A DNA stretch of 64,000 nucleotides. Source: a virus (taxonomy: Duplodnaviria; Caudoviricetes). Under the pieces are notes generated by a model. The model saw only the letters and a program-made list of their open reading frames with translations, was not told the origin of the DNA and ran no database searches. The stretch lies in IMG/VR virus record IMGVR_UViG_3300028920_000023; one strand, 5' to 3'. The position numbers were made by a program, and so were the translations under genes. Below are positions 1 to 64,000 of the stretch, piece by piece. Positions within the stretch are counted from its first letter, which is position 1, and each line of letters begins with the position of its first letter.

Positions 1-182
1 TAGCAAGAAACTGGATACAAAACGTCCAACTCCGCATACTCCCAGAGAACTACTTCGATAACGAACGCTTCCTAGGCGACTTCGAAATCTCCGAGCTATG
101 CCCCTGACGACGAGAAAACCACCCAAAACAGGGTGGTTAGGGACAAACCAGGAGGAAAACACATGCGCTAAAGGAGAAAAAC

Positions 183-374
183 ATGCTCGCAGACAAAAAA
201 GACAGAGACAAACTAGCCAAACTGCTCAACCAAATACAAGCAACACCACAAACAGTAGAGCAACTAGGCTACAAAATCACAGAGACACACCACACTCTGT
301 GCAGAGTTGAAGACAACCAAGGCCACCACGCCTACTGGCTAGGCGGCAAAGAATGGCGAACAGTCTTCAACTAA
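183..374 (+). CDS. hypothetical protein (63 aa)
   Basis: AAAGGAG RBS 5 nt before ATG. Confidence 0.55.
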   Translation: MLADKKDRDKLAKLLNQIQATPQTVEQLGYKITETHHTLCRVEDNQGHHAYWLGGKEWRTVFN

Positions 375-514
375 CCTTCCTCACAGGAAACACGTCACAC
401 AAAGCCACACGCCACAACACGAATACGCAGGACGGGGACATCCCCGTCCAAACACACGGGCAGGGATGTCCCCCGCCCAAACACATACGGGCAAAAGCCC
501 AAAGGAGACAGACC

Positions 515-874
515 ATGCAAGAACGAATCACAGAACTCGTCGAGAACAACGGCCTGAGCCAGGAGCAAGCAACAATCGTCGCCAAGGCTGAAGAGACCCA
601 GGCCAAGAAAGCCCAGAAGGCCCTGGAAAAGGTGAGCAAATACCCACACGCCATCATCAACACCCTCACCCACGACCCAGTGGCCAAAAAGAACAAAGTG
701 CAGATCGAGTGCGTCGAGTGCGGCGACACCACACGCTGGGTCTACACCTCGGACCTCTTCCAAGTTCGTCACTGCACAGAGTGTGGCAAGAAGGCCAAGG
801 CCGAGAAGGCCAAGCAGAAGGCAGCCGAAACCAAGGCAGCCCTCGAAGCCTACCGCGCAAGCCTGAAGGACTAA
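515..874 (+). CDS. hypothetical Zn-finger protein
   Basis: AAAGGAG RBS; CVEC...CTEC cysteine pairs; Lys/Ala-rich helical tail. Confidence 0.75.
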   Translation: MQERITELVENNGLSQEQATIVAKAEETQAKKAQKALEKVSKYPHAIINTLTHDPVAKKNKVQIECVECGDTTRWVYTSDLFQVRHCTECGKKAKAEKAKQKAAETKAALEAYRASLKD

Positions 875-876
875 AC

Positions 877-916
877 CTGACGAGGTACGAATCCCTTTCC
901 CTAGTGGAAAGGGAAG
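877..916 (+). repeat. hammerhead-core-like element, type B (T-A closing pair)
   Basis: CTGACGA-G GTA C-GAA-TCCCTTTCC ctagt GGAAAGGGA-A-G; 2 nt after upstream stop. Confidence 0.85.
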
Positions 917-938
917 AAACCAAACAAGGAGAACAAAA

Positions 939-1256
939 ATGGTCGAATACAAATTCACCAACGTCAAATTCCACGTCGACGAAGAAAACATCATCATCTG
1001 CGACCTGGAATTCGTCAACGAACACGGACACCCACTCAAACGCTGCGAGAACGTCCTCTTCCAAGTCGGAAGAGAAGGCATCCTAACCGACGGGGAGATA
1101 GGCGTTCGAGATGACGAGGAAGGGCCGTACATGGAACGCGCTCGAGAGAAGTACGGCAAGAACTATCCAGGTTGGGATGTTTACAACAAAGAGGATTTCG
1201 AGAGGGCTTACCTCACATGGTGCAATGAAGGCAACGATAACGAGGTTCCATTCTAA
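939..1256 (+). CDS. hypothetical protein (105 aa)
   Basis: AAGGAG RBS; acidic VPF C-terminus. Confidence 0.75.
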   Translation: MVEYKFTNVKFHVDEENIIICDLEFVNEHGHPLKRCENVLFQVGREGILTDGEIGVRDDEEGPYMERAREKYGKNYPGWDVYNKEDFERAYLTWCNEGNDNEVPF

Positions 1257-1345
1257 CCGAATCCTCAATAGCAAGAGCTGCCAAATGAGATCCTTCGGGA
1301 ACCGGGTTAGAATATTTCAATACAGCAAGAGCTGCCAAATGAGAC

Positions 1346-1386
1346 CTGACGAGGTACGAATCCCCTTTCCACTAGGGAAAGGGAAG
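1346..1386 (+). repeat. hammerhead-core-like element, type B
   Basis: CTGACGAG GTA CGAA TCCCCTTTCC acta GGGAAAGGGA AG. Confidence 0.85.
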
Positions 1387-1407
1387 AAACCAAACAAGGG
1401 AGGTAAC

Positions 1408-1644
1408 ATGGAAAAATTGACTGATGAGGAGCTGGAAGTGGTCCAGGATTATTTTCTGGATAGTGATGTTACTTCTGTTGTCTGGATTGAGGCTCATGAT
1501 GATGTTCGGATTGTTAAGCAGACGGTTGAGGAGGTCATTCGTGGAGTGAGGGAGAACAAGTTGGTGTCTGCTTATTTTAAGCTCAAGGGTGAGTCTATGG
1601 ATTGGTGGGTTGAGGCTTTGGAGAAGAGCTTGAGGGGTGTTTGA
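1408..1644 (+). CDS. hypothetical protein (78 aa)
   Basis: GGAGG RBS; codon third positions strongly G/T-biased. Confidence 0.7.
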   Translation: MEKLTDEELEVVQDYFLDSDVTSVVWIEAHDDVRIVKQTVEEVIRGVRENKLVSAYFKLKGESMDWWVEALEKSLRGV

Positions 1645-1670
1645 GTTTGGTCCGAAGGACAGGGCGAATT

Positions 1671-1710
1671 CTGATGAGTTTCGAATCTCTTTCCTGAGTG
1701 GAAAGGGATG
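1671..1710 (+). repeat. hammerhead-core-like element, type B
   Basis: CTGATGAG TTT CGAA TCTCTTTCC tgagt GGAAAGGGA TG. Confidence 0.85.
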
Positions 1711-2084
1711 TTCTTTAGAGGGGTTCTTGGGTAATTCTTACCTGGTGTTTGGAGGGAGGAATTATTCCTATTTTGTTGATATTACGCTGTGTGTATTTCT
1801 ACACAGTGTGCGCGATGTTTGGCTTGTTGTTTAATTGTATCGTATATGTCAAGGGGATATAAGTTCGATACCCCCTTCGAGGTATTTTTGTGGCCAGTCA
1901 ATATATGCGCGAGGGCAACGAAGTATAAATCGGTCCCCCTCTTCTTTTGTGTTTGGAGGGGTGTTGTTGATGGGGTAGTGTTCTCGAGTTGTGGATCAAG
2001 AGTTGACCGAGAGATGTTTTTCTGTTTTTGTTCTACGTGGAACGTGTTTCTGTTTAGCAGGTGCGGCCCATTTCCACACAGGAA

Positions 2085-2125
2085 ATGATGAGGCTTTGGT
2101 TGAAACAGAGGGGTTTTTCTTTGTT
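2085..2125 (+). repeat. degenerate hammerhead-core-like element, type A
   Basis: ATGATGAG GCTTTGGT TGAAACAGAG...CTTTGTT. Confidence 0.6.
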
Positions 2126-2163
2126 TGTGTTGTTTGGGGTTTGATCTGTGTTTTTCTTGTTCT

Positions 2164-2204
2164 CTGATGAGGTGTCGAATCCTTTTCCTGTGTGGAGGGG
2201 GATG
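2164..2204 (+). repeat. hammerhead-core-like element, type B
   Basis: CTGATGAG GTGT CGAA TCCTTTTCC tgtgt GGAGGGGGA TG. Confidence 0.85.
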
Positions 2205-2236
2205 TTTTTCTGTTTTCCTGTTTAGAGGAGGTGGTG

Positions 2237-2720
2237 ATGGGCGAAACAAAAGCAACAGATACAGGTGTAGTGGCTTGTGTCTGGGAAGGAGACGAAAAGG
2301 GGATTTTCCCTGTCTTCGTCGTCGAGGACGCTAGGGGAGTGTGTGAACATTTCCTAAGTTTTGGGCGAACAGAAACCGGCGGGGTGGTTTTATCTCTCCT
2401 ACTTGGTGCAGAAAGGAAAAGGAAGATATGCTATTGGTCTCTTCCCCAACCTGCCGGAGGACGTCGGTACTTTGCTCTTTCGGCCCTTGGTTTTCTTGGG
2501 CCGGGATATGGGGCATGGGCTGACGTCTTTTGTGTTTGCGAATACTTATGGGGAGATCGAAGAACAGGGGGGAGTGAGGGTTGGGTTTCTAGATGTTAGG
2601 GATTTTGATGCGGGTGAGTTTAGCAGGGGCGGTTTATTTTCGCCGTATGCGATCGATGGGGTGAATGTTTCTTTGGATGAGCGTTATCGACGTTACCTCC
2701 GGAGGCTGTTGGGGGTGTAA
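2237..2720 (+). pseudogene. frameshifted paralog of 17468-18079
   Basis: Two overlapping ORFs (2192-2599, 2361-2720) match consecutive parts of the 17468 protein (CVWxGxExGIxP; YAIGLFPNL); removing one T from TTTT at 2359-2362 joins them. Confidence 0.7.
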
Positions 2721-2888
2721 CGGCGGGAGGGTATCAAGACAGAGGTCATTAATTCGTTGTTGGGTGATTATCAGCTGGAGGTTGATGGGAGCAAAAGGAG
2801 AGGGTTTGATCCTTTTGCTCCTTCGAGGTATGATCTTGATTCTGCGGTGGCTACGGCGGAGGAGCTTGGTTATTGTTAGTCGTGGGGC

Positions 2889-2928
2889 CTGATGAGTTTC
2901 GAATCCTTTTCCTGGGTGGAGGGGGATG
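2889..2928 (+). repeat. hammerhead-core-like element, type B
   Basis: CTGATGAG TTT CGAA TCCTTTTCC tgggt GGAGGGGGA TG. Confidence 0.85.
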
Positions 2929-2950
2929 TGTTTTCTTGAGTGGAAAGGGG

Positions 2951-2985
2951 GTGGTGAGTTTCGGATCCTCTCGAGTGGAGGGATG
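2951..2985 (+). repeat. degenerate hammerhead-core-like element, type B
   Basis: GTGGTGAG TTT CGGA TCCTCTC gagt GGAGGGA TG. Confidence 0.55.
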
Positions 2986-3005
2986 TTTTTCTTTGTGTTT
3001 TTCTG

Positions 3006-3251
3006 TTGTTATTTGGGGTCTGTGATTGGGGGAGTGAGCAATGCCGAGTTTTGATATTGTTTCTTGGATTCAGTCGAATACGGAGATTGTGGATAAGTTG
3101 CAGGCTGAGGGGTTATGAAGCGATTACTGATGGGTATGTGAAGCGTTGGGTTGAGTCGAATCGTGAGGTTTGGGATGAGGATGAGTCGGATTTTGATAGT
3201 TATGAGGAGGAGGTTGTTAGTAGTCTTAGGGATCATTTCGGGCAGGGTTAG
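3006..3251 (+). CDS. hypothetical protein, start uncertain
   Basis: C-terminal half is protein-like and acidic; N-terminus doubtful. Confidence 0.4.
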   Translation: MLFGVCDWGSEQCRVLILFLGFSRIRRLWISCRLRGYEAITDGYVKRWVESNREVWDEDESDFDSYEEEVVSSLRDHFGQG

Positions 3252-3261
3252 GTTGTGGGTT

Positions 3262-3304
3262 CTGATGAGGCTTTGGCCGAAACAGAGGGGTGTTTTTCTC
3301 TGTT
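3262..3304 (+). repeat. hammerhead-core-like element, type A (A-T closing pair, GTT triplet)
   Basis: CTGATGA-GGC TTTG GCC-GAA-ACAGAG...CTCTGT-T. Confidence 0.85.
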
Positions 3305-3349
3305 TGTGTTTGGTGTTTTTCTGTTGTTAGCTTTAGTGAGGGGGTGGGT

Positions 3350-3670
3350 ATGTCTGTTGTTTCTGTTGATGTTGGGTTGGTTCCTCAGCGGAAGGTTGTG
3401 GGTGATGATGTGGAGTTGGAGGTGGTTGTTTATTTGTGTTCGGATGATGTGGAGGATGTGGATACTGTGCCGCTTGTTGATTGTTTTGATGATGAGTGTT
3501 GTGTTCCTGCCCTATCGATTCCGGGTTTGGGTGAGGGGGAGTCGTGGGCTGTTGTGGGGGAGGGTGAGGTGTCGACGGTTTATCCGGGGAACCGTCATTG
3601 GTTTTTGTTTAATAGGTTTCCGAAGAATATGGGGGAGGCTTGGAAAGTGGTTGAGAATTATTTGTTTTGA
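3350..3670 (+). CDS. hypothetical protein (106 aa)
   Basis: G-rich RBS; lies between two repeat elements. Confidence 0.65.
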   Translation: MSVVSVDVGLVPQRKVVGDDVELEVVVYLCSDDVEDVDTVPLVDCFDDECCVPALSIPGLGEGESWAVVGEGEVSTVYPGNRHWFLFNRFPKNMGEAWKVVENYLF

Positions 3671-3680
3671 GTGTGTTTTC

Positions 3681-3719
3681 CTGATGAGTGTCGAATCCTT
3701 TCCTGGGTGGAAAGGGATG
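3681..3719 (+). repeat. hammerhead-core-like element, type B
   Basis: CTGATGAG TGT CGAA TCCTTTCC tgggt GGAAAGGGA TG. Confidence 0.85.
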
Positions 3720-3887
3720 TTTTTCTTGTTGGAGGTTGTTGGTTTTGTTAATCTCGGGTTCGGGATCTGAAAGGAGCGTTTTGAGTGCGGTATTCAATCG
3801 GGACTTGTAAGACTGCCCCAAGACAGAGATCATTTTAGTAAGACTCGACCCTGTGAATTTGTCCAGCAAAACATTCAGATTAGGTTC

Positions 3888-3927
3888 CTGATGAGTGTCG
3901 AATCCTTTTCCTGGGTGGAAAGGGATG
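3888..3927 (+). repeat. hammerhead-core-like element, type B
   Basis: CTGATGAG TGT CGAA TCCTTTTCC tgggt GGAAAGGGA TG. Confidence 0.85.
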
Positions 3928-3977
3928 TTACTCCAAATCTATTTTGGGGCACACATTGTGCACGGAAAGGAGAACTG

Positions 3978-4257
3978 ATGAATGACAACAATTACTGCAG
4001 TCAGTGTGGTCGGACGACCAGACACAGTGTGTCCGGGATCATCTACACTTGCGAAAGATGTGGAGTCCGGCGGTTCCGCATACCAAATAGACGGCCCTGG
4101 GATAATAAGGACTGTAAATCTTTTTTGCCCAAAGTGCAAAACTTGCACAAGGCATGATATTAAGACGGCTAAAGAGAGAGCCTGTACTGTTTGTGGGCAC
4201 CGGCTGTTTACTAGAGGGACTGGTCGGGTGAGTCAGAGGATTTTTATTCGTTTGTAG
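3978..4257 (+). pseudogene. double zinc-ribbon protein, frameshifted
   Basis: CSQC..TRH..CERC in one frame and CPKC..TRH..CTVC in the next; joined by deleting one T of T6 at 4121-4126. Confidence 0.6.
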
Positions 4258-4742
4258 TTCTTCCTTTTGTTTTTTCCGCTTTTTTCTTTTTCTTTTTCTT
4301 TTTCTTTTTCTTTTACTGCTTCTGTGTGTCAGGGGTGGGGTGGTGTGTGTTTATGGGGAATTCGATTGGAGAGGAGTGTGTGTGTGAGTTTGGCTTTTTT
4401 GCTTGCGTCTTTGGCGTTGCCTCCTGTGCGTCAGCCGTTGGTTGCGGGGGTGCGTCATCGGGCGTCTAAGAAGCTTCGGAGGGTTAGGAAGCGGCAGCGT
4501 CAGAATAGAAAGAGAGGTAGAAGAAGATGAGGGGTTCGGTTACGCCGGCGAAACGGACTAGGGAGGGTGTTAGGGTTTTTTTGTGGGATAATCCTGAGTT
4601 GAGGAGGGCTTGGAGGGAGGCTTGTCAGAGGGAGCGTAAGGAGTGTCAGGTTGAGCGGGCTTGGCGGGGGAAGAAGTCTTGAGTGTGGGTGTGGTTACTT
4701 ACGTTTTTTTTCTTTGGCGGGGTAGGGTGGTGTGGTTGTTTT

Positions 4743-4785
4743 CTGATGAGGCTTTGGCCGAAACAGAGGAGGGTGTTTCTCTGTT
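4743..4785 (+). repeat. hammerhead-core-like element, type A
   Basis: CTGATGAGGCTTTGGCCGAAACAGAGGAGGGTGTTTCTCTGTT. Confidence 0.85.
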
Positions 4786-4825
4786 TGTGTTGGACAGGTA
4801 ACCGTTCTGGGAGGGAGGAAGGAAC

Positions 4826-5263
4826 ATGCCGGAAGAGAGTAAATTCGAGATAGGTCAGCGTGTGAGCCATAAGGGCTGTCCGGGGACGCTCGAGGGTTTC
4901 CGTACGGACGCGCCTGGTGGTTTCCGTTCGGGTGTGCCTGGGGATGCGCCTGTGGCGATTGTCAGGTGGGATGACGGGAAGACGGGTGATGTTGTGTTGG
5001 GTGAGTTGAAGCCAAGGCCGTATCCTTATGATTATGTGGTTAAGGTTGTGGCTGTGAATGGTGTGAGTCGTTGTGTTATCTACACGGACGATACGGCGTT
5101 TGGGTTTAAGGATGAGGAGGAGGCTTTCGCCAGAGCCAGGGAACTTGCCAAGAAGTATGTTGGGGAACTTGGGGGCGTGTTGCTCGGGCTTACCGTTCGG
5201 TTCGGGGGTGTGTTTGATAGTGATAATCTCTTTTTTAGGGTAGAGGTTATTCCGGTTCCTTGA
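4826..5263 (+). CDS. hypothetical protein, possible SH3-like N-terminus
   Basis: GGAGG RBS; KFEIGQRVSH...IVRWDDG pattern. Confidence 0.75.
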   Translation: MPEESKFEIGQRVSHKGCPGTLEGFRTDAPGGFRSGVPGDAPVAIVRWDDGKTGDVVLGELKPRPYPYDYVVKVVAVNGVSRCVIYTDDTAFGFKDEEEAFARARELAKKYVGELGGVLLGLTVRFGGVFDSDNLFFRVEVIPVP

Positions 5264-5297
5264 TGAGTTTCGGGTTTCTTCTTTTGTGGAGGGGTTG
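5260..5297 (+). repeat. degenerate hammerhead-core-like element, type B
   Basis: TTGATGAG TTT CGGG...; its TGA is the stop of 4826-5263. Confidence 0.5.
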
Positions 5298-5466
5298 TGT
5301 TGGTTTCGTTTTGGTGCTTTGGTTGTTTTGGGAGGGGGTTGTGATGTGTGAGCCTTAGTTGTGGGGTTTTTGGTGTTTTTTGTGTGTTCTTTTGGCTTCT
5401 TGGTATTTTGGGAGGGGGGTTGTGATGTGTGAGCCGTGATGTTGCGAATCAATAGGGGGAATGCGA

Positions 5467-5509
5467 CTGATGAGGCTTTGGCCGAAACAGAGGAGGGTGT
5501 TTCTCTGTT
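5467..5509 (+). repeat. hammerhead-core-like element, type A
   Basis: Same 43-mer as 4743; flanks can form a bulged, G-U-rich stem I. Confidence 0.85.
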
Positions 5510-5539
5510 TGTGTTTTCCTGTGAGGAAGGGGGTTTGTG

Positions 5540-6145
5540 ATGTCGATTGCTGATTTTGATGTTCGATATCGTTTTGTGCCGAAGGATCAGCTGGTGCGGT
5601 TGGATGCGGATGTGGGGTCTTTTGAGGTTAGGGAGCAGCTCACGAGGGCTGTGGCTTGTGGTTTTGGTACGTTTCGGGTGGTGGGGTTGGCTGTTCCGGA
5701 GTTTGATGGGGAGATGAGTGCGGAGTTGCGTGCTCGGTTGGATGCGGGTTTTTGGGTTGTTGAGGAAGGTGATGTGTTGTATGATCGGACTTTTGTGGCT
5801 GTGTTGTTTGAGCCTAAGTGTTTGGTGTTTGTGCCTTTTGGTAGGGATGGGGTGGCTGGGGATTCGGGGTTTTTTCCTTCTTCGGAGGATCTTGGTTCGG
5901 TGTATCGTGAGGGGATGAGTTTTGAGGAGATGCTTGCTGTTCCTGCGTATTTGCAGGGCGATGGTGTTCCGCTTACTCCTGAGGAGGTGGCTGGTTTTTG
6001 GGTGTTGGAGCGGGATAAGCTGGAGACGATGCTTGGTGTTTGTCCTGATGATCTTGATGATGATGGTGCTGTGTATGCGGCGAATTGTGGTCTGAAGACG
6101 GGTATTGCTCATGCTGCTGTGCGGATTGTGGAGCGTCCTGTCTGA
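5540..6145 (+). CDS. hypothetical protein (~201 aa)
   Basis: Long ORF between two type A elements. Confidence 0.75.
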   Translation: MSIADFDVRYRFVPKDQLVRLDADVGSFEVREQLTRAVACGFGTFRVVGLAVPEFDGEMSAELRARLDAGFWVVEEGDVLYDRTFVAVLFEPKCLVFVPFGRDGVAGDSGFFPSSEDLGSVYREGMSFEEMLAVPAYLQGDGVPLTPEEVAGFWVLERDKLETMLGVCPDDLDDDGAVYAANCGLKTGIAHAAVRIVERPV

Positions 6146-6155
6146 GTTGGGTAGG

Positions 6156-6198
6156 CTGATGAGGCTTTGGCCGAAACAGAGGAGGGTGTTTCTCTGTT
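6156..6198 (+). repeat. hammerhead-core-like element, type A
   Basis: Same 43-mer as 4743. Confidence 0.85.
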
Positions 6199-6237
6199 TG
6201 TGTTTTCTTGGGAACGGGAAGTGTTTTGGAGGAAATA

Positions 6238-6756
6238 ATGATGTATGAGGTTACGATGTTTGAGAGCAGTATTGAGGCTGCGGTGACTCGTCGGGATAAG
6301 GATTTGGAAACGGCGATTCTTGCGGCTCATAATGAGTTGATGAGGCGGCACCAGGGTGATGATTCGTGTAGGCTGAATCGTTATTGTGGGGCTTGGTCGA
6401 AGCCATCTAATCCCGAGGAGCGGCATAATCTTAGTGGGTCTGAGCCGGATTTTAGTGAGGGGGTTGTGTTGATTTGGTGTTTTGACCGGATGACGGTTGT
6501 GGAGGGTGTTGCCAGGAAGATTTTGGACAGGTCGGTTGTGTTTGTGGTGATTTCTGATCAGGAAGGTGATTTGGATGCTAGGGAGTTTGGTGGTTTGGGG
6601 GAGGCTTTGGTTTATTTTAATGAGATGCGTGAGGTGTTTGGTCTTACTGTTGGTGATTGCGGGCATGATCCTGGTTTGGTGACTGAGGAGTGGTTGGCTT
6701 CGTATAATTTGATGGCTGATGATGGGGAGGCGCGTGTTTGCTTGAGGTCTAGGTGA
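6238..6756 (+). CDS. hypothetical protein (172 aa)
   Basis: GGAGG RBS; between two type A elements. Confidence 0.75.
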   Translation: MMYEVTMFESSIEAAVTRRDKDLETAILAAHNELMRRHQGDDSCRLNRYCGAWSKPSNPEERHNLSGSEPDFSEGVVLIWCFDRMTVVEGVARKILDRSVVFVVISDQEGDLDAREFGGLGEALVYFNEMREVFGLTVGDCGHDPGLVTEEWLASYNLMADDGEARVCLRSR

Positions 6757-6765
6757 GGGGTTGTG

Positions 6766-6808
6766 CTGATGAGGCTTTGGCCGAAACAGAGGAGGGTTTT
6801 TCTCTGTT
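6766..6808 (+). repeat. hammerhead-core-like element, type A
   Basis: One loop substitution relative to 4743. Confidence 0.85.
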
Positions 6809-6906
6809 TGTGTTGTTTGTGTTGTTTGTGTTGTTTTTGTTTTGTGGAAGGAGGTTTTCATGTCTACAGGTTGTTAGGAAGGGGAGTGGTGATGTTCTTG
6901 GTGATT

Positions 6907-6949
6907 GTTATGAGGCTTTGGCCGAAACAGAGGAGGGTGTTTCTCTGTT
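6907..6949 (+). repeat. degenerate hammerhead-core-like element, type A
   Basis: GTTATGAG GCTTTGGC CGAAACAGAG...CTCTGTT. Confidence 0.75.
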
Positions 6950-6985
6950 TGGTTTGTACGTGGTTCTCGATTCGGAGGTGGGATT

Positions 6986-7186
6986 ATGACGAGCTTTGAT
7001 GGAAGGACGTGGATTCAGCAGACTGGGGCTGTGCTTCGGTTGGGGCGGGATGGCAATATGCGTCCTGCTGGTAAAAACCAGGCCAGGCGGGCTATTCGCC
7101 GCTTGGGTGGTCAGGAGCGTGCTGAGATGTGTAGGTTGTGCTTGGCGCGGGCGCTGCGGTTTGCTTTTCCTGGGAGGAAATGTTGA
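6986..7186 (+). CDS. hypothetical Arg-rich protein (66 aa)
   Basis: GGAGGT RBS; stop lies inside the next repeat element. Confidence 0.55.
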   Translation: MTSFDGRTWIQQTGAVLRLGRDGNMRPAGKNQARRAIRRLGGQERAEMCRLCLARALRFAFPGRKC

Positions 7187-7224
7187 GGCTTTGGCCGAAA
7201 TAGAGGGATGTTTTTCTCTCTGTT
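7180..7224 (+). repeat. degenerate hammerhead-core-like element, type A
   Basis: ATGTTGAG GCTTTGGC CGAAATAGAG...CTCTGTT. Confidence 0.7.
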
Positions 7225-7259
7225 TGTGTTTCTGAGTTGTTTGTGGAAAGGAGGTGGGT

Positions 7260-7605
7260 ATGGCTGGGCGGGTTCTGGAGGATGGTTTCGAGATTGGTGA
7301 TCTTAAGGATGAGTTTGGGGCGGAGGCGCTGGAGTGATCTTAAGGATGAGTTTGGGGCGGAGGCGCTGGAGAAGTTGGAGTTGATGGATCCTGCTAGCCT
7401 CAAGACGTCGAAGATTCAGAAGCAGAAGGTTGAGGGTGTTGGGCGTGTTGAGTGCTGGGTGGATGCGTGCTCGGTGGATGCGGATATGGGCCATGTTCGT
7501 TTCTGGCGTCTTCTCGATGTTGTCGATGGGGAGGGGGTTCCGGTTGTTCTTGAGGAGGATTATGGTGAGGGTTTGCTTTTTTATGGGCGGAATTACACTC
7601 TCTGA
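7260..7605 (+). pseudogene. hypothetical gene disrupted by a 37-bp tandem duplication
   Basis: AAGGAGGT RBS + ATG at 7260; exact duplication (units start at 7297 and 7334) creates an in-frame TGA. Confidence 0.65.
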
Positions 7606-7641
7606 TGAGTTTCGAATCCTTTTCCTTCGTGGAGGGGGATG
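7602..7641 (+). repeat. hammerhead-core-like element, type B
   Basis: CTGATGAG TTT CGAA TCCTTTTCC ttcgt GGAGGGGGA TG; its TGA is the upstream stop. Confidence 0.85.
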
Positions 7642-7665
7642 TTAACCTTAACAAAGGAGGTGGTG

Positions 7666-8028
7666 ATGGCGAAGGGTGAAGAGAACAAGAAGGACAGTCT
7701 CTTGCGTGCTTACGATGAGTTTTGTGAATTGCTTGATAAAATTCAGGATGGCGAGGGGAGGATTCTCGAGGACGAAGAGAAGAATGCTCTTCTTGGATTG
7801 TTGATGAACAGTGGAGACAAGGAGTTGGCGTGTGTTGGTTTGTTGATTGGTTCTTTGGATAAGGTGAGGTTGTCTTCTTCTGGGGGTGTTTGGTCGATAG
7901 GTCTCGGCGTTCTGGGCGATTTTGATGTTGTTTTGTCGTTCAGAGAGTCCGAGCATGATGAGCTGGGTCGTGGCGATGAGAAGAGTGGCGATCCAAAGGA
8001 TAAAACAGTTCTTAGGAAAAACAATTGA
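7666..8028 (+). CDS. hypothetical protein (120 aa)
   Basis: AAGGAGGT RBS. Confidence 0.65.
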   Translation: MAKGEENKKDSLLRAYDEFCELLDKIQDGEGRILEDEEKNALLGLLMNSGDKELACVGLLIGSLDKVRLSSSGGVWSIGLGVLGDFDVVLSFRESEHDELGRGDEKSGDPKDKTVLRKNN

Positions 8029-8200
8029 GGGCAGATATGAGCAAGGGCTCCTTCACATCTGTTGCAATGGCGAACAGATGTCAAGTGTTACTGTGTCCGA
8101 TTCCGAAGGATCCAGAAAAATCTTCGAGGGTATTCTCGGAGCTATTGACAAGATAAAAGTTTCCGATATAGACTTTACCAATAACCAACCAAAATCCTAG
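7976..8200 (+). CDS. hypothetical protein (74 aa)
   Basis: Protein-like ORF overlapping the previous gene by about 50 nt; weak RBS. Confidence 0.45.
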   Translation: MRRVAIQRIKQFLGKTIEGRYEQGLLHICCNGEQMSSVTVSDSEGSRKIFEGILGAIDKIKVSDIDFTNNQPKS

Positions 8201-8295
8201 GGGGTGTCATGGAGCATTTTTTCGTTTGCGAGGGGCCGTGTATTTGTCATCAGACGATCGAAACCCTCCGCCACGAAAGGTGCTGGTGAGGAATC

Positions 8296-8335
8296 CTGAT
8301 GAGTTTCGAATCCTTCTCCTGACTGGAGGGGGAAG
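8296..8335 (+). repeat. hammerhead-core-like element, type B
   Basis: CTGATGAG TTT CGAA TCCTTCTCC tgact GGAGGGGGA AG. Confidence 0.85.
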
Positions 8336-8386
8336 TGTTTTCCTTGTTGGAAATTGGTTGGTTTGTTAACCTCGGGAGGATTTGGT

Positions 8387-8674
8387 ATGACCAGGATCTA
8401 CAGAGTGACGGAGGAGGAGAAGGAGATTTTGGTGGCTTTGCGCCGGAAGGGTGAGAAGTGTAGCCAGATGATCGCTCGTCTCACCGCAGCGATTGCCGAA
8501 CTTGATTCGGTTCCTCCTAAACCTATTCGGGCCGTTAGTCATCGGTTCGATTTTGAGCGATCTGAACTTGAGACTATCAAAGCAAAGGCCGAGGAGCTTG
8601 AGACCACCGTGATCCATTTGCTCATTTACACGGCACGACAATTGGTGGAAAAGGAAAAGGCCGGCAAGCTCTGA
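8387..8674 (+). CDS. possible ribbon-helix-helix DNA-binding protein
   Basis: GGAGG RBS; C-terminal strand-helix-helix pattern (RFDF..ELETIKAKAEELETTVIHLL). Confidence 0.6.
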   Translation: MTRIYRVTEEEKEILVALRRKGEKCSQMIARLTAAIAELDSVPPKPIRAVSHRFDFERSELETIKAKAEELETTVIHLLIYTARQLVEKEKAGKL

Positions 8675-8691
8675 TATTTGTTCACGTTCCT

Positions 8692-8731
8692 CTGATGAGT
8701 TTCGAATCCTTTTCCTTCGTGGAGGGGGAAG
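8692..8731 (+). repeat. hammerhead-core-like element, type B
   Basis: Near-identical to the 7602 copy, including the 3' leader to the RBS. Confidence 0.85.
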
Positions 8732-8755
8732 TTACCCTAACAAAGGAGGACATTG

Positions 8756-8992
8756 ATGATGCGATGGAAGATGCTGCCCCGAAATAAAAGGAAGTCGATC
8801 AGGAAGAAGTTTAGCGAGAAGGTTAATGCGCTGATCCACTATCTGGAGTCGTACGTCGGGGACAACTACGCAGGGAATTCCTCTGTGAGTCAGTTGAATA
8901 ATGTCTGGGGCAAGTTCAACGACTGTTGTCCTTTGGACTTCGATGGTATTGGTGATGAGAGTAGGAATCAAGATGGCGGGAAGTTACCCTAA
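8756..8992 (+). CDS. hypothetical protein (78 aa)
   Basis: AAGGAGG RBS. Confidence 0.6.
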   Translation: MMRWKMLPRNKRKSIRKKFSEKVNALIHYLESYVGDNYAGNSSVSQLNNVWGKFNDCCPLDFDGIGDESRNQDGGKLP

Positions 8993-9032
8993 CAAAGACG
9001 ATGAGGACGATGAGGACGATGAGGACTGAATC

Positions 9033-9071
9033 CTGACGAGTTCGAATCCTTCTCCTAAATGGAGGAGGAAG
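9033..9071 (+). repeat. hammerhead-core-like element, type B
   Basis: CTGACGAG TT CGAA TCCTTCTCC taaat GGAGGAGGA AG; 3' tail shared with the 8296 copy. Confidence 0.85.
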
Positions 9072-9157
9072 TGTTTTCCTTGTTGGAAATTGGCTGGTTT
9101 TGTTAACCCTCGGGAAGATTACCGAGAAATGAAGAACCCGTTTTGAAAGGAGAGGCG

Positions 9158-9448
9158 ATGAACACCAAGAGCGTCGAGTTTGGGATTTTGATCCAGGGCT
9201 GCACTTACAGGGACCTTCGTGCCGTCCTGCCGCTGAGCAAGGACGGAGATCCTTGTTTGGCATGTGAAGATCATGTGGTTGAGTCTGCAAATGAAGATGG
9301 TCCTGAGCACTATGTTAGTTTCGGTGTCTTGCAGCATGGCGCTGAGGTTCCTGTTGTTGGTCCTAATGTTGAGTATTGGACCAATGCGATTAAGTCTGGT
9401 GTGAAGGGGGCTAGGGCCAAGTTTGCTATTCTTGAGGTTTGGCGGTGA
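9158..9448 (+). CDS. hypothetical protein (96 aa)
   Basis: AAAGGAG RBS. Confidence 0.7.
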   Translation: MNTKSVEFGILIQGCTYRDLRAVLPLSKDGDPCLACEDHVVESANEDGPEHYVSFGVLQHGAEVPVVGPNVEYWTNAIKSGVKGARAKFAILEVWR

Positions 9449-9664
9449 TTTAGGGGTTTTTATTTGTGTTTTTCTGTTTGGTGTGGGTGGTTGGTGTTTG
9501 TTTTTATATGCTTTGTGTGGGGGGTTTGTATTTGTTCTTATATTCTTGATTGAGGGAGTTGTTTGACAAGGGGTTTCTTTAGGCTGACAAGTATTTGTGT
9601 GGGGGCAGGGGGATACGACTGCACTGGGTGTTTTTTGACTGGAAACCTTGCTGAGGAGGTTGTG

Positions 9665-9886
9665 ATGTTTGTGATTACTGGTCGAGATGGTTCTGGCAAG
9701 ACTTGGTATTGGCGGAAGTGGACTGGGGCCTGCAGCAGTGGCCATCCGAAATGGGTGGAGCGGTTCTCTCCTAAGTGCATCTACGCACAACGGAAGGTCG
9801 CCGAGAAGACTGCGGCAGGGAGTGCGGTCATTAACGCATTTCGCAAGGGAGATCCGGTCCCTTTATCCGATGTTAGAGTGCTTTGA
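9665..9886 (+). CDS. hypothetical protein (73 aa)
   Basis: GAGGAGGT RBS. Confidence 0.6.
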   Translation: MFVITGRDGSGKTWYWRKWTGACSSGHPKWVERFSPKCIYAQRKVAEKTAAGSAVINAFRKGDPVPLSDVRVL

Positions 9887-9893
9887 TCCTGTT

Positions 9894-9980
9894 ATGACAG
9901 CAAATCCGAAAAAGAGGCAGAAGGTGCAGAAGATAGCCAGCAGAGACCTCATTTTGGGCAAGCGTCTGCTGGACCTCTAG
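9894..9980 (+). CDS. small basic protein ending in RLLDL
   Basis: Short ORF, start uncertain; carries the C-terminal tag shared by six other ORFs. Confidence 0.45.
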   Translation: MTANPKKRQKVQKIASRDLILGKRLLDL

Positions 9981-10056
9981 AGAGGAGGATGTGGCTGAGT
10001 ACTGTGGTTTGATGCGGAGGCGGAAACGGTCGAACGAGAGGATACGGAGGAGCATT

Positions 10057-10386
10057 ATGCTTATTTGGGATAGCGAAAGTGAGAATGATCAACCTACACC
10101 GATCGAGGAAGATCGGTTTTACCGGTCTCTGGGTGAGGATAATGGCGTCTTAATTGTGGACAGTTGTGAGACGTCTGATTCACGAACGACGGTTTTGTTG
10201 TTTGTGGGTCCGAATTCCAAGGAGAATTGGACTAAGTGGAATGAGTTTGCCCGCCTCATCCGCCTCATTGCAGATGAGGAAGTCGTTACCGAATGGCCGG
10301 ATGAGGAGTTGGATCTGGACGATATAAGCAAGTGCCTCAAGAAGTGTTTTGACCCACCAACCCAACCATCTTGTGCGTGCACATGA
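10057..10386 (+). CDS. hypothetical protein (109 aa)
   Basis: GGAGGAG RBS. Confidence 0.65.
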   Translation: MLIWDSESENDQPTPIEEDRFYRSLGEDNGVLIVDSCETSDSRTTVLLFVGPNSKENWTKWNEFARLIRLIADEEVVTEWPDEELDLDDISKCLKKCFDPPTQPSCACT

Positions 10387-10439
10387 AACACGTTGCATTT
10401 GTCAAGCATTAAACTAATCCCAGGAAAGGAATTCGCGCC

Positions 10440-10610: not shown

Positions 10611-10647
10611 TTTCGCGCAACTAAATTCGGCAAAGGAAATAACCACC

Positions 10648-10825: not shown

Positions 10826-10859
10826 TGTGTTGTCTGTTTTTCTTTAAGGAGGGTTAGTG

Positions 10860-52532: not shown

Positions 52533-53732
52533 CTAGTTGAGAATTGCGCCAGATGCCCAATGATCCCGCGCTGTCTTACTATTTGGGTCGATGAAATCCT
52601 CGAATTCACCTAACTCCACCACCGAATTCTCCAGATCATACTCCTTGGCGATCAGATCCCCAAACACACCAGTAAACTTCCTAGCCGCATCTGGGGTCAG
52701 CTGATGCGTAGCAACCTCAGTAACGAAATTCAGCAAACGATACATATGGCAGGGCGTCGGCGTCATCCGCTGTCGCTTCTCCGAGATACTGTTGAGATCC
52801 GCGACCCCATAAAGCGCCCTGAGGTCACCCGTGAGGTTGCGGAAGTGCTTGAACAGATCAGACCTCAGAGTCTTACCAATAGTCCCTGTATCGGTCTGAC
52901 CAGTCTTCTCGGCCATCTGAGCCGAGAATGACTCATCGAAATCCTCAGGAGCTAAATTTGCGACGAGCTTGCCCACCCTGACGCACTCCGCGACGCTAGC
53001 ATGCGTCCTCTGGGAAGCATCCATCCTCTGCAGAAGGGCTGCATACCCCTCTTCGTTCTGGAAGCTCTCAAGAATCCGAATCGCGGTCCCCACCGGGTCT
53101 TCAGAACCCACTTGGATTGCAGACCTGAAGATCTTGCTATGCGCAATAACACCGTTGGTACAAACCTGACGCCAGAGGCTAAGGAAGACAGCCGGGTCGC
53201 CATAGCCGTCGATTGGTGTTTCGAGGGCAATCTTCATTGCGAAGTCATCTGGACCGATCTTCCTATTAATTCCTAGGAGATTCAGAGGTGTATGAATGGT
53301 TTGGTATTTGCCATCGCAAAAGGATGCTCTTTCCACTCCAAGGTGGTTGTAGACCGCTATTGCTTGTTCATCATACAGCATCTTGCGTCCTGGTTTGGTG
53401 ACGCCCCATAGTCTTGGGTTGTCACCTCTTTCTACACAGAGCTGTACTTGGTCATCGGTGAATCGACCTGTGTCTCCGATTCTTTGGAAGACTTCGTAGT
53501 GGTCGAAGAGACGGAACACGCTTGGACCAAATTGGAAGCGTGATCCTAGACTGATCCAGAATCGGGATGTCGGTCTAGCTTCTCGTCCGTCTGGAAGGAC
53601 GATCTTATCTGCGACCATGGACCCTGTCTTGGGGTCTCGATGCCCCAGTGCTTTGAGATCCGACACCGCTGCTTGCGGGTAATCGAATGTGGGTAGGTCT
53701 ATCAGTTGACTACTGCCTGAATCGTACGTCAA
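52533..53732 (-). CDS. DUF932-like protein
   Basis: LWRQVCTNG motif; GGAGG RBS + TTG. Confidence 0.7.
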   Translation of the reverse strand: MTYDSGSSQLIDLPTFDYPQAAVSDLKALGHRDPKTGSMVADKIVLPDGREARPTSRFWISLGSRFQFGPSVFRLFDHYEVFQRIGDTGRFTDDQVQLCVERGDNPRLWGVTKPGRKMLYDEQAIAVYNHLGVERASFCDGKYQTIHTPLNLLGINRKIGPDDFAMKIALETPIDGYGDPAVFLSLWRQVCTNGVIAHSKIFRSAIQVGSEDPVGTAIRILESFQNEEGYAALLQRMDASQRTHASVAECVRVGKLVANLAPEDFDESFSAQMAEKTGQTDTGTIGKTLRSDLFKHFRNLTGDLRALYGVADLNSISEKRQRMTPTPCHMYRLLNFVTEVATHQLTPDAARKFTGVFGDLIAKEYDLENSVVELGEFEDFIDPNSKTARDHWASGAILN

Positions 53733-54612: not shown

Positions 54613-54994
54613 TGGTGCCCATTCTAAGATCTGATCGAATTCCCAGGATGGCCGATTTTAGATTTATTACTTCGGGGTTACAGATCCAGAACCTTTTGAT
54701 GTGTTCTGGCATGTTCATGAGGACCTCTGGGGAGTCTTCGAACATGCAGTCTATGCCTAGGTTCTGTGCTTGTTTGGCTTTCCATGTGGCGAAGTCGTCG
54801 TCTTCTTCGGGCAGGACTATGTCTGTGTAGGATATTTTGTGTTCAGCCAATAATTTTTGTATTTCTTCTTTGCTGTCGGTCCTGTATGTGATTACGTAGA
54901 CTTCTCCGCCTGATTTGATTATGGCTTCGGATAATATCGAGAAGAGTTCTGGTGCGTCGGTGATTGTTCCGTCGTAGTCGATACCTATCTTCAT
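54605..54994 (-). CDS. HAD-superfamily hydrolase (5'-nucleotidase-like)
   Basis: IGIDYDGTI (DxDGT); ITYR; MFED. Confidence 0.85.
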   Translation of the reverse strand: MKIGIDYDGTITDAPELFSILSEAIIKSGGEVYVITYRTDSKEEIQKLLAEHKISYTDIVLPEEDDDFATWKAKQAQNLGIDCMFEDSPEVLMNMPEHIKRFWICNPEVINLKSAILGIRSDLRMGTIR

Positions 54995-55053
54995 GATGTT
55001 CCTTTCTGTTCCTCGGGATAGGGAGAGGTACTAGCATCTTGCCCTATCTGCCG

Positions 55054-60331: not shown

Positions 60332-60409
60332 GTCCCCGTAGCTCAGCCAGGATAGAGCATCTGTCTTCTAAACAGAATGTCGAAGGTTCGAATCCTTCCG
60401 GGGATGCCA
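60332..60409 (+). tRNA. tRNA-Arg (anticodon UCU)
   Basis: Full cloverleaf: GTCCCCG/CGGGGAT acceptor, GCTC/GAGC D stem, TCTGT-CTTCTAA-ACAGA anticodon arm, GAAGG-TTCGAAT-CCTTC T arm, encoded CCA. Confidence 0.95.
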
Positions 60410-61735: not shown

Positions 61736-61738
61736 CTT

Positions 61739-61912
61739 TTACTCCCTTACAATAGCTTTTTTGGGTAGTTGTTCTCTGGTTGCTTTCCAGACTCCTGTTT
61801 TTAGGAATTTGTAATAATATTCTTGTTTTAGACTTCCATCTTTGTCATATTCTGGTATACGCCACCAGGGGTGTCTTGATGTTCCTTTTGATATTTTCTC
61901 ATTCTTGCCCAT
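61739..61912 (-). CDS. hypothetical basic protein (57 aa)
   Basis: Starts 1 nt after the previous stop. Confidence 0.55.
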   Translation of the reverse strand: MGKNEKISKGTSRHPWWRIPEYDKDGSLKQEYYYKFLKTGVWKATREQLPKKAIVRE

Positions 61913-61913
61913 C

Positions 61914-62216
61914 TTAAAGCCCAGGAACAATGTCCCCGGCAGATGCTCCTGTGGCTTTCACGATCTTCCTAAGAGAATCTACCGAAGGATCTCGATGCAC
62001 ATCGTCCTTCTTGCTCTTATATCGTGAAACCGTGCTCGGATGCAGCCCAGCCTTCTGGGCTATATCTTGCTGAGTTTCCCCAGAATTGACATAAGCACGT
62101 TTGATCTTGGATATTTCATCATCTCGCACTTTTCTCTTGGTGTCTTTCACGCTTTTCCCGTCCTCTTCCTCAGAAAGAGAAACAAGACCCTGCGTATGAA
62201 GTTCATATAATTTCAT
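61914..62216 (-). CDS. XRE/Cro-like helix-turn-helix protein
   Basis: TQQDIAQKAGLHPSTVSRY...PS...L.KI. Confidence 0.85.
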   Translation of the reverse strand: MKLYELHTQGLVSLSEEEDGKSVKDTKRKVRDDEISKIKRAYVNSGETQQDIAQKAGLHPSTVSRYKSKKDDVHRDPSVDSLRKIVKATGASAGDIVPGL

Positions 62217-62300
62217 AATTGTCTCCTCACCTTATTTTTGAACCAGAAGCACCTTTTAAGAGCATATAAGAAAGATATTATATAACAAAAGGAGAACATT

Positions 62301-62753
62301 ATGGTAGCACCAAAAGAAAAACACAAAGACTGTCGGTGCCTTCGCTGCGAAAAACACGTTCAAAAAATGCTAGACGAGCATGGCTGGATAGTGGATCTCA
62401 TCAGAGATGGTGACAAACCAAACTTCCATAGCCATTATCTAGAAAGCTACCTTGGACACAAGGACATCCAATTAGTCTATCCTTTACCCGACAATCTAGT
62501 CGGCGGGATCATGCACACCGTGGTGGGCAATATCAAAAAAGGAAGGAAGTATAAAGCTGGAGATATAACCAGCAGCGTTCTAGAGGGACTGGACGTACTG
62601 TTCGTAGAAGCCACAGAAACTGGACGTACAGTTCTGAGAATTATTCTACCAGATAAAGAAGGTAGACTCAAACCTGGGGAAATCATTAGTCCATACGATA
62701 TGCAATGGGACGAGAACGTGAAAATTCCTGAGGCCTACCAGAAAATCGACTAA
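62301..62753 (+). CDS. DUF4262-like protein
   Basis: NFHSH...GH.DIQLV...LRIILPD..G; AAAGGAG RBS. Confidence 0.7.
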   Translation: MVAPKEKHKDCRCLRCEKHVQKMLDEHGWIVDLIRDGDKPNFHSHYLESYLGHKDIQLVYPLPDNLVGGIMHTVVGNIKKGRKYKAGDITSSVLEGLDVLFVEATETGRTVLRIILPDKEGRLKPGEIISPYDMQWDENVKIPEAYQKID

Positions 62754-62780
62754 GTAAATATCCTAAAAAGGAGATTTATT

Positions 62781-63230
62781 ATGTCGATGAAAGACATTCG
62801 CGTAGTCAATACCAACAGTCTACGCGGCAGAGTGAATCGTAAAGTGAACGGGCACAACACTCAGGTAGCTAGGCCAGATACGACCGTTATCCAACAACGT
62901 GGGGAACACGAGATTGGTGCTCGTGTGATCAGTTCCGAACCAAATAAGATGATGATCGGCTCGGAATGGAAATGCAAGAAAGACAAATTGGATTATCCAG
63001 AATTCTGCACGGTGATAGAGACTAATCAAAGATTCGTAATATTCGCGGTCAAAGCTGAGGTTGATTCGGATCTACCTGCTAATATCTATTCGTTTGATTC
63101 TAGATTGTTTGTCAGACTTTACGAGCCATTGAAGGAACAGAGTAATGCACGCAGATCAGCTAAACAAATTGCTACGGAAAGCTCTGAGACAGAAGGGTCT
63201 AAGGGGGATAATGAGCCTAAGGGAAGCTAG
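62781..63230 (+). CDS. hypothetical protein (149 aa)
   Basis: AAAGGAG RBS. Confidence 0.7.
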   Translation: MSMKDIRVVNTNSLRGRVNRKVNGHNTQVARPDTTVIQQRGEHEIGARVISSEPNKMMIGSEWKCKKDKLDYPEFCTVIETNQRFVIFAVKAEVDSDLPANIYSFDSRLFVRLYEPLKEQSNARRSAKQIATESSETEGSKGDNEPKGS

Positions 63231-63402
63231 ACAAATCAGAGCAGAAATATTAGAGGCCCACAAAAAGCATATCGAAAATCATAAGGTGAGTATCGAGTTC
63301 AGTCCTGTCCATAGCGTTGGGGAGAATCCCCAGTGTGATGCAGATAGGACTAAGATTATTGTTGTTCCGCTAGAGACGGATACTGTAAAGTTCAAGACTT
63401 AG
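63211..63402 (+). CDS. hypothetical protein (63 aa)
   Basis: AAGGGGG RBS + ATG at 63211. Confidence 0.5.
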   Translation: MSLREARQIRAEILEAHKKHIENHKVSIEFSPVHSVGENPQCDADRTKIIVVPLETDTVKFKT

Positions 63403-63922
63403 ATTGGTTTCTTCTAGCTATTCCAGACAGGTATGAACAAAGCCAGAAGTATCCGTCTTTGATCCATTCGGCGTCTTTGAGTGCGTCATGCGCGCCTTCT
63501 TCTTGTTTTGGTAGTTTGTCTCTGGTTATTCCGTAGGCGTTTAGTGATTGCATGAGGTCCAGGCATAATTTTGGGAAGTGTTTTGGTAGTTTGTACATGG
63601 GTCCGAATAACCAACAGAAGTTTACCCAGTCATAATCTGCGAAGTATCCCCAGAATAGTGGGTTTTCGTCTTTGCCTATGAAGTCGAGTATTTCGTCTCT
63701 TATTTGTGTTCTGGTTTTCCATTGGTCTTTTGGTGGTAGTTTGGGTAGGACTTCTCTCATTAGGAAGTTGTGTTTTTTAGCTGCTTCGTAATCGAATTCT
63801 TTGCTAACTGCGTAATATTTCTTTTTGCCGGTTTCACAGACGATCCCTATGCTTATTAGTTCTATTCTTCCTCCGGTTGCGTCTGGCATTTCGTGAAATT
63901 CGGTGTCTATGAAGTACCTCAT
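63392..63922 (-). CDS. DEDDh 3'-5' exonuclease (RNase AS / Rv2179c-like)
   Basis: YFIDTEF..ELISIGIV; YDWV..CWLFG.M..LP; HDAL.DA. Confidence 0.9.
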   Translation of the reverse strand: MRYFIDTEFHEMPDATGGRIELISIGIVCETGKKKYYAVSKEFDYEAAKKHNFLMREVLPKLPPKDQWKTRTQIRDEILDFIGKDENPLFWGYFADYDWVNFCWLFGPMYKLPKHFPKLCLDLMQSLNAYGITRDKLPKQEEGAHDALKDAEWIKDGYFWLCSYLSGIARRNQSKS

Positions 63923-64000
63923 AGTTGTCTCCGGTTTATAGATATTTACGTCGCGATAATTATTCAGTCAAATGATTCTCGATAATATCCATAATCTCGG

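Follow-up and report, generated by a model that had tools for sequence, protein, structure and literature searches.

A mosaic of G/T-rich and A/C-rich strand states in the genome of an uncultured giant phage

How can a single strand of a phage genome be made almost only of G and T at its silent sites in one block and mostly of A and C in another, with the two states switching abruptly and even inside genes? This question is raised by a 64,000-nucleotide stretch of DNA (hereafter the window) from the IMG/VR virus record IMGVR_UViG_3300028920_000023, which lies within a 354,787-base contig that comes from an uncultured giant phage (Duplodnaviria; Caudoviricetes) of marine sediment. The initial annotation, made from the letters of the window, described such a mosaic and proposed either patchy, strand-asymmetric mutation, from an unusual replication mode with many local origins or long exposure of single-stranded DNA, or an artefact of assembly or consensus calling. 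Our analysis confirmed that the mosaic is real and not an assembly error, and we consider it very probable that it reflects a strand-specific transition pressure filtered by selection.

Map of the strand states and agreement between assemblies

We call G+T keto and A+C amino, the keto skew being G+T-A-C, and all states are read on the + strand. Measured over 500 nucleotides (nt), the keto skew spans -0.46 to +0.53, with a standard deviation of 0.215 compared with 0.044 in shuffled sequence. A hidden Markov model (HMM) restricted to third codon positions yielded three + strand states, with G/T contents of 24% (58% of the sites), 51% (29%) and 86% (13%), and about 45 state changes across 58 kb of coding sequence, many of which lie within genes. 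The sliding skew and the third-position HMM thus bear out a mosaic of abruptly switching G/T and A/C blocks. The coordinates of the states, blocks and islands are given in Table 1.

The + strand genes at 1.4–7.9 kb had been said to use G/T at silent sites, and this is what we find: third-position keto content is 0.83–0.89 in the genes of the G/T blocks, it peaks at 0.96–1.00 over 5587–6109, and four-fold degenerate sites are 94–97% G/T in genes 3290–3670, 5537–6145 and 6241–6756. Unskewed islands are nevertheless present within this block (2035–2566 and 3987–4149). The + strand genes at 12–33 kb, described as A/C-rich, are so overall (third-position keto 0.23–0.27), with the exception of the region 21.9–26.8 kb, which is mostly unskewed and itself holds two within-gene A/C patches (22395–22878 and 24040–24532); short unskewed stretches also lie inside the A/C block that precedes it (14396–14742 and 15578–16028). 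In three small - strand genes at 40014–41236, four-fold sites read on the + strand contain 0% T and 5–10% G. The four short G/T islands named in the initial annotation were all recovered by an HMM using all bases, and the switches that it had placed within the radical SAM gene, the sigma-like gene and a DUF932-like gene of 399 amino acids (aa) were all found by the third-position HMM, the first of them at 33654.

The borders of the blocks are of different kinds. On the left the large G/T block begins sharply, at 1.09–1.42 kb, and on the right it decays slowly over 8–11.8 kb. The A/C to G/T change near 1.4 kb sits exactly at the start codon of gene 1408–1644, and the switch zone that leads to it (1094–1416) holds a 21-nt direct repeat in two exact copies, at 1270 and 1324. 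The A/C state on the left extends upstream of the window, positions -4139 to -3139 being about 87% A+C over all positions (JGI contig, 5 kb upstream). A second A/C to G/T change, at 37.6–38.2 kb, is gradual. No motif shared by the boundaries was visible. A sawtooth of skew anchored at a short recurring word was not found either: no 4- to 6-mer is associated with a skew step beyond chance (largest |z| about 4 among some 5,400 words), and a step centred on GGCC reaches only z = 1.8. Gene length does not predict the strength of the skew.

Independent sequence was available as assembled contigs (Logan, JGI and ENA), which hide rare variants, rather than as raw reads. Three runs were compared; they correspond to three samples from three studies, all of marine sediment, dated 2019 and possibly from one campaign. 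They contain 96–98% of the 31-mers from 500–10000, their Logan contigs span 1–20000 with zero differing letters, single contigs cross the A/C to G/T switch (805–4272), and depth is constant across block borders. A JGI contig from another sample shows 0 mismatches and two small indels in 11,660 bases, and one Logan contig matches at 100% identity along 14,111 bases. Third positions are far more skewed than the first two codon positions, which neither random conversion of reads nor biased allele choice would bring about in a population without visible variants. The proposal that the blocks were created by assembly or by the consensus therefore fails the comparison with independent assemblies, in which contigs are identical and bridge the switches.

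Strand dependence, signature and origin of the skew

The skew state belongs to the DNA strand and not to the gene. In the A/C state, third positions read on the + strand have nearly the same composition in + genes (A.39, C.36, G.16, T.09) and in - genes (A.42, C.34, G.15, T.09), the G/T state likewise has the same + strand composition for genes of both orientations, and the skew of intergenic DNA has the same direction. These observations remove translation and transcription-coupled explanations. As the skew is strongest at position 3, it must have been filtered by selection. The proteins are nonetheless affected, and the amino-acid bias that had been tied to the blocks is recovered when composition is computed per state: V, W, C, F and G are increased where the coding strand is G/T-rich, and Q, I, T, K, H and N where it is A/C-rich.

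Purine and pyrimidine shares remain nearly as in unskewed stretches while keto and amino contents flip, so that the skew is almost entirely the work of transitions. Each state mirrors the other and, read on its own G/T-rich strand, has A.06–.08, C.07–.15, G.32–.38 and T.45–.49. On that strand the depletion of A equals or exceeds that of C, and a simple calculation from the balance of forward and back transitions gives A>G about 1 to 1.6 times the strength of C>T. No effect of the 5' or 3' neighbour on the residual letters was detected, residual C preceded by T or by G amounting to.07 and.08, respectively, in G/T patches and to.15 and.17 in A/C patches. Plain hydrolytic deamination of single-stranded DNA removes C far faster than A. 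It therefore accords badly with the equal loss of A and C and the absence of context, except where repair of uracil is much more efficient than repair of hypoxanthine. A single mispair, G·T, has both A>G and C>T as its outcomes, and the signature fits one-strand outcomes of G·T mispairs better than plain hydrolytic deamination. The idea of strand-asymmetric mutation is thus supported in so far as transitions are strand-asymmetric and patchy, whereas plain deamination of single-stranded DNA fits poorly; many local origins are one possibility among several. The initial annotation had recommended searching the rest of the genome for deaminases; among the Pfam matches for the genes of the window there was none.

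Homologous repeats lying in different blocks had been reported to differ mostly by A>G and C>T on one strand. This is true of the copies at 34874 and 39323, between which 82 nt show 5 transitions toward keto, 1 toward amino and 1 transversion. The DUF4116 copies of 12–14 kb and 56 kb also differ by directional transitions (58–76 against 11–20, about 4:1), but they show as many transversions (56–80), and the elements at 877 and 2889 were compared only by eye and in a regular-expression listing. Another case is that of the repeats that we call Family A, which share a short motif followed by a hairpin, lie upstream of many small genes, are followed in several copies by a ribosome-binding site after the hairpin, and have a uniform orientation on both sides of the switch. 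G·U pairs account for 0 of 26 pairs in the hairpins of A/C-state copies and for 17 of 84 in those of G/T-state copies. Since the hairpins keep pairing by way of G·U, the copies have been remodelled by directional transitions under RNA-level selection.

A second set of elements, resembling hammerhead ribozymes, was seen on the + strand. Five near-identical cores (CUGAUGAG, stem, CGAAAC, stem) are present at 3262, 4743, 5467, 6156 and 6766, with weaker copies at 10785 and 11858, and the five cores retain A and C letters amid DNA of about 90% G+T. This retention points to strong selection or to recent copying between cores. Rfam at E<=1 reported no hammerhead, only a tRNA and a chance miRNA match, though the cores are visible by eye.

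The sigma-like gene runs through all three states. On the + strand it is in the A/C state up to 37633, mixed up to 38191 and G/T at 38194–38953, and, read along the - strand that encodes it, its third-position keto content goes from 0.15 (aa 33–286) through 0.46 (aa 287–472) to 0.84 (aa 473–652). Its identity to three orthologues is equal across all segments (33–35% for the two that are closer). The oppositely skewed patch thus resembles the orthologues as closely as its surroundings do and did not come in as a foreign piece.

Relatives place the origin of the mosaic in this lineage. Syntenic relatives, which share about 60% identity in the NAD-dependent DNA ligase, have only a mild bias: coding-strand third-position G/T of the ligase gene is 0.59–0.64 in them and 0.87 here. 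The standard deviation of the skew over 300 nt has a median of 0.072 and a maximum of 0.123 in 141 other loci, against 0.225 in the window. Both polarities therefore arose in this lineage, and the mosaic is lineage-specific. When the ligase was searched, as a single sequence and as an alignment, against viral and metagenome contigs, only relatives of at most 39% identity came back; these were used as background. Substitutions polarised with three relatives of about 60% identity, a distance at which the comparison is too noisy, number 20 keto-ward and 6 amino-ward at positions 1 and 2 of the ligase gene and are balanced in less skewed genes. The equal identity along the sigma-like gene, the remodelling of Family A and the 4:1 transitions of the DUF4116 copies favour a process acting in place; the island over a 64-aa gene, the switch at a start codon at 1.4 kb and the higher G+C content of 22–26 kb fit cassette exchange.

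Two further ideas on what sets the patches were tried and rejected. The patch map at first seemed conserved in relatives (r = 0.43–0.55, persisting with disjoint codon sets), but this correlation mostly reflects a gradient from 5' to 3' shared by - genes, and after linear detrending r is 0.21 (p = 0.08). Seeding by skew imposed by the protein was not borne out, the skew of positions 1 and 2 in relatives being related to third-position polarity in the window with r = 0.12–0.17, which is not significant. The gradient itself is a separate observation: in the - genes (33728–58045) coding-strand third-position G/T climbs from 5' to 3', by about 0.1 over the first 100 codons, and the same is seen in orthologues of unskewed relatives (loci L003–L005), while the + genes of the window are without it.

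Possible sources of the transition pressure

Skews of this type are known from GRINS, which are duplicated regions of more than 500 bp and more than 80% identity found in polyketide synthase (PKS) clusters, most commonly in Streptomyces. GRINS are tied to gene conversion, and show correlated GC and TA skews that are maximal at third positions, with abrupt changes of sign on one strand and shifts in amino acids (Nivina 2021, PMC8256042). The phage shares with them intense, correlated GC and TA skews of both signs on one strand, abrupt changes, the dominance of third positions, and an amino-acid shift between Gly, Val, Cys and Trp on the one hand and Thr, His and Gln on the other, Pro being barely shifted in the phage; the cause is unexplained there as well. 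Calculated over 150-nt segments of the whole window, mean |GC skew| is 0.196 and mean |TA skew| 0.269, both above the value of 0.15 that characterizes GRINS; the Pearson correlation of the two skews is 0.475 (0.70 in GRINS), and both skews exceed 0.15 with the same sign in 30% of the segments and with opposite signs in 6%. The difference lies in the repeats. Blocks of the phage are mostly single-copy and kilobases long and include about 70% of the silent sites of the window, and a self-BLAST of the window with 5 kb of upstream sequence gave no pair of more than 500 bp at 80% identity, the best DUF4116 repeats reaching 64–78%. The mosaic is thus a GRINS-like skew without repeats, a known but unexplained kind of skew in a new form, and our literature search found no paper on such a mosaic in a phage.

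Replication asymmetries offer a second comparison. The G/T-rich leading strand of bacteria and the G/T-rich heavy strand of vertebrate mitochondrial DNA result from the same two transitions, independently of gene direction and with a maximum at silent sites, and the magnitude of the mitochondrial skew is near that of the A/C state here. In these systems a replicon switches once or twice and the gradients are smooth, whereas the 64 kb of the phage contain dozens of switches, with patches as small as about 130 nt and unskewed gaps between them, and the number of changes in its coding sequence far exceeds the two, at origin and terminus, of the bacterial type. In mitochondria, moreover, the two transitions behave differently, while in the phage A and C are lost equally, residual A not exceeding residual C, although unequal repair of uracil and hypoxanthine could mask a difference. 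The A/C state to the left of the sharp edge of the G/T block has the polarity of a bacterial replication origin. Transcription-coupled asymmetry and APOBEC kataegis resemble the phage pattern in their strand-coordinated blocks, sharp borders and C>T changes on the exposed strand, but polarity in the phage ignores the coding strand. Neither TC nor any other neighbour is preferred and A>G equals C>T in strength, unlike what APOBEC/AID or DddA would leave, and the pattern is fixed and filtered by selection and so is not the product of one burst, as kataegis is.

We tentatively propose, with somewhat less than even confidence, that the source of the pressure is G·T mispairs arising when one strand is synthesized or repaired in connection with recombination-dependent replication. 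The pressure itself very probably drives transitions from A to G and from C to T, of about equal strength, on one DNA strand at a time, the other strand being hit in mirror-image patches, and purifying selection leaves an inherited footprint that is nearly full at silent sites and mild in proteins and RNA elements. The mispairs may be left uncorrected when one strand is made or repaired alone, for example in leading-strand synthesis, in synthesis primed from a D-loop or an R-loop, or in gene-conversion tracts, in the setting of the recombination-dependent replication of a T4-like phage; local polarity would then be a record of the newly made strand. In published work, G/T mismatches far outnumber C/A mismatches among those made by DnaE-type polymerases, the leading strand shows a preference for both C>T and A>G with similar counts, and EndoMS/NucS cleaves G/T, G/G and T/T mismatches only, irrespective of the bases next to them, leaving C/A uncut (PMC6159521). 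The process would be of the same kind as that behind the GRINS skews, spread phage-wide instead of being bound to repeats. That the phage carries a genome-wide GRINS-type drive, resting on G·T mismatches made or filtered in one-strand synthesis, is conceivable but doubtful.

Several points weigh against an origin in G·T mispairs. Strand asymmetries in the literature are about 2- to 4-fold, and 86–97% G/T at silent sites needs 10- to 30-fold. Polarity would have to stay constant over many generations, and no cis-acting signal was found among 4- to 6-mers or boundary motifs. Patches of 130–200 nt are hard to explain by fork direction, the equal loss of A and C could also be produced by deamination if uracil were repaired far better than hypoxanthine, and the polymerase type and repair genes of the phage are outside the window.

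The alternative that survives best, although we consider it unlikely, is a single genome-wide asymmetry combined with relocated DNA. One strand would be exposed as single-stranded DNA in each replication round, as in vertebrate mitochondria or in rolling-circle replication, and would be deaminated, making an A/C-rich + strand the default; G/T and unskewed patches would be segments that were inverted, moved or recombined in from relatives of other or no polarity. This would account for the dominance of the A/C state over the G/T state at third positions, for islands that match whole small genes (34437–34631), for the start-codon position of the change at gene 1408–1644, and for the layout of the G/T block, in which small cassettes are arrayed between conserved elements of possible use in recombination; the higher G+C content of the unskewed 22–26 kb is as might be expected of recent arrivals. 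However, switches within intact genes cannot be inversions, the patch in the sigma-like gene is no more diverged from orthologues than its flanks, and the array of elements and genes keeps one orientation across the switch. Donors of opposite skew would differ at nearly all silent sites, which should block homologous recombination, and no such donor is found in databases, the nearest relatives, at about 60% ligase identity, being unskewed. Finally, A is lost as fully as C, unlike in mitochondrial-type deamination.

Somewhat less probable still is a biased handling of mismatches in recombination heteroduplexes, in which a NucS/EndoMS-like enzyme of the phage or the host would cut G·T but not A·C and so reject a transferred G or T, gene conversion then driving A/C alleles on the transferred strand. 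The specificity of EndoMS/NucS suits the absence of context and the equal treatment of both transitions (PMC6159521), GRINS are tied to gene conversion and commonest in Streptomyces (PMC8256042), and a drive on fixation should bring silent sites to extremes more readily than biased mutation would. Such a drive needs standing variation, yet the population looks clonal, with no variant letter in the three runs (in contigs, which hide rare variants); it also requires a fixed choice of transferred strand for each patch, and no NucS family is among the Pfam matches of the window genes.

Selection on RNA or translation, by which G/U-rich or A/C-rich messages or codon endings would be chosen for folding, stability or decoding, is very improbable. 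A/C-rich RNA cannot fold on itself and G/U-rich RNA can, the hairpins of the repeats show RNA-level selection at work, and the weak rise of third-position G/T along coding strands is common to - genes and their orthologues; but the state tracks the DNA strand, so that + and - genes have opposite codon choices, intergenic DNA is skewed too, both polarities occur inside one message, and a division into G/T- and A/C-ending codons mismatches the split of codon boxes by tRNAs. An artefact of assembly, allele choice or read chemistry is scarcely credible, for although contigs were compared and the 2019 sediment metagenomes may share a campaign, the sequence is identical in the Logan contigs of three runs, the JGI contig and further Logan and ENA contigs, which bridge the switches at steady depth, and third-position dominance, intact genes and conserved ribozyme cores do not agree with one.

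Gene content of the window and significance of the skew map

Pfam assigned ordinary phage and accessory genes to the window (Table 1). Gene calls for 0–54 kb were taken from public contigs carrying identical proteins, and 99 of the 99 gene models used translate without internal stops. A megablast of 12–32 kb against phage records gave no match, and an exact-sequence look-up of the helicase gave no record.

Table 1. Strand states, blocks, repeats and annotated genes of the window
Feature	Position	Strand	Remarks
A/C state	1–1416, 11920–21911, 26250–33655, 39817–43952	+	HMM, all bases
G/T state	1417–3794, 4183–7988, 9253–9728, 38120–38975, 39554–39816	+	HMM, all bases
Short G/T islands	34461–34652, 39554–39816, 54694–55029, 63467–63834		HMM, all bases
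A/C block	1–1091		third-position keto 0.26; 0.04–0.08 in codons 947–1094
Switch zone, A/C to G/T	1094–1416		begins within gene 939–1256
G/T block	1419–7980		about 22 small + strand genes with hammerhead-like elements between them; third-position keto 0.83–0.89
G/T state fading toward neutral	7981–11841		third-position keto 0.5–0.88
A/C block	11844–21914		+ genes (DUF4116 pair, subtilase, others); third-position keto 0.23–0.24
Mostly unskewed, higher G+C	21917–26781		AAA and DUF2201 genes
A/C block	26784–33653		+ genes; ends 81 nt before the radical SAM stop (gene 33030–33734)
G/T island, 129 nt	33656–33782		3' ends of two convergent genes
G/T island	34397–34602		nearly matches one 64-aa - strand gene (34437–34631)
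Sigma-like gene	37093–39051	-	all three states
A/C block	39854–47122		- strand genes including NAD-dependent DNA ligase (coding-strand third position 87% G/T)
G/T patch	53385–53592		within 399-aa - strand gene 52533–53732
Family A repeats	877–9075	+	CUGAnGAG, 2–4 nt, CGAA, then 9–10 bp hairpin; copies at -151, 877, 1346, 1671, 2164, 2889, 3681, 3888, 7602, 8296, 8692, 9033
DUF4116 repeat proteins (4), subtilase (1), AAA ATPases (2)	window		Pfam
DUF2201 metallopeptidase/VWA protein (1), radical SAM proteins (2)	window		Pfam
Sigma-like protein (652 aa), NAD-dependent DNA ligase	window		Pfam
WGR protein, DUF6744 protein, helicase	window		Pfam
tRNA-Arg(UCU)	60332–60409		single tRNA-Arg of the window
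DUF4262 protein	62301–62753		right end of the window
Rv2179c-like 3'-5' exoribonuclease	63392–63922		right end of the window

Two gene calls deserve comment. In gene 2237–2599 the skew is stronger at position 1 than at position 3, and the gene overlaps a second frame (2361/2574–2720) whose pattern is the usual one; this may reflect an erroneous call, a wrong frame or a frameshift. The second is an open frame of 488 aa at 4646–6112 on the - strand, here the A/C-rich one; it faces real small + genes, has no Pfam match and is most likely a shadow frame due to the scarcity of stop codons in skewed DNA, and a trap for gene callers.

A few differences between assemblies were also noted. The second DUF4116 gene (13095–14456) codes for 453 aa in the window, but an ENA contig of this phage has a 363-aa version, the two differing by 270 nt inside an array of 24-aa repeats, and small indels amount to 4 nt at 5219, 12 nt within 3122–4772 and 16 nt in the JGI contig. 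In all three runs contig depth over 1–1334 is 2–3 times that of the rest, one contig per run links 931 back to 1, and a paralogue of 492–864 (82% identical) lies about 3 kb upstream; cassettes in this region may be repeated or variable in copy number.

Skews as strong as these distort gene calling, by creating long false frames on the opposite strand, and they also distort host prediction from codon usage, amino-acid composition and the phylogenies of these phages. If the pattern records which strand was newly made or repaired, the phage would provide a second and much larger system in which to trace the cause of the GRINS skews, and the replication and recombination of uncultured phages would become readable from sequence alone. 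The map of silent-site skew would then be a base-resolution record of where, and in which direction, strands start in recombination-dependent replication, the origin-like A/C to G/T switch at 1.1–1.4 kb, beside the two 21-nt repeats, being an example.

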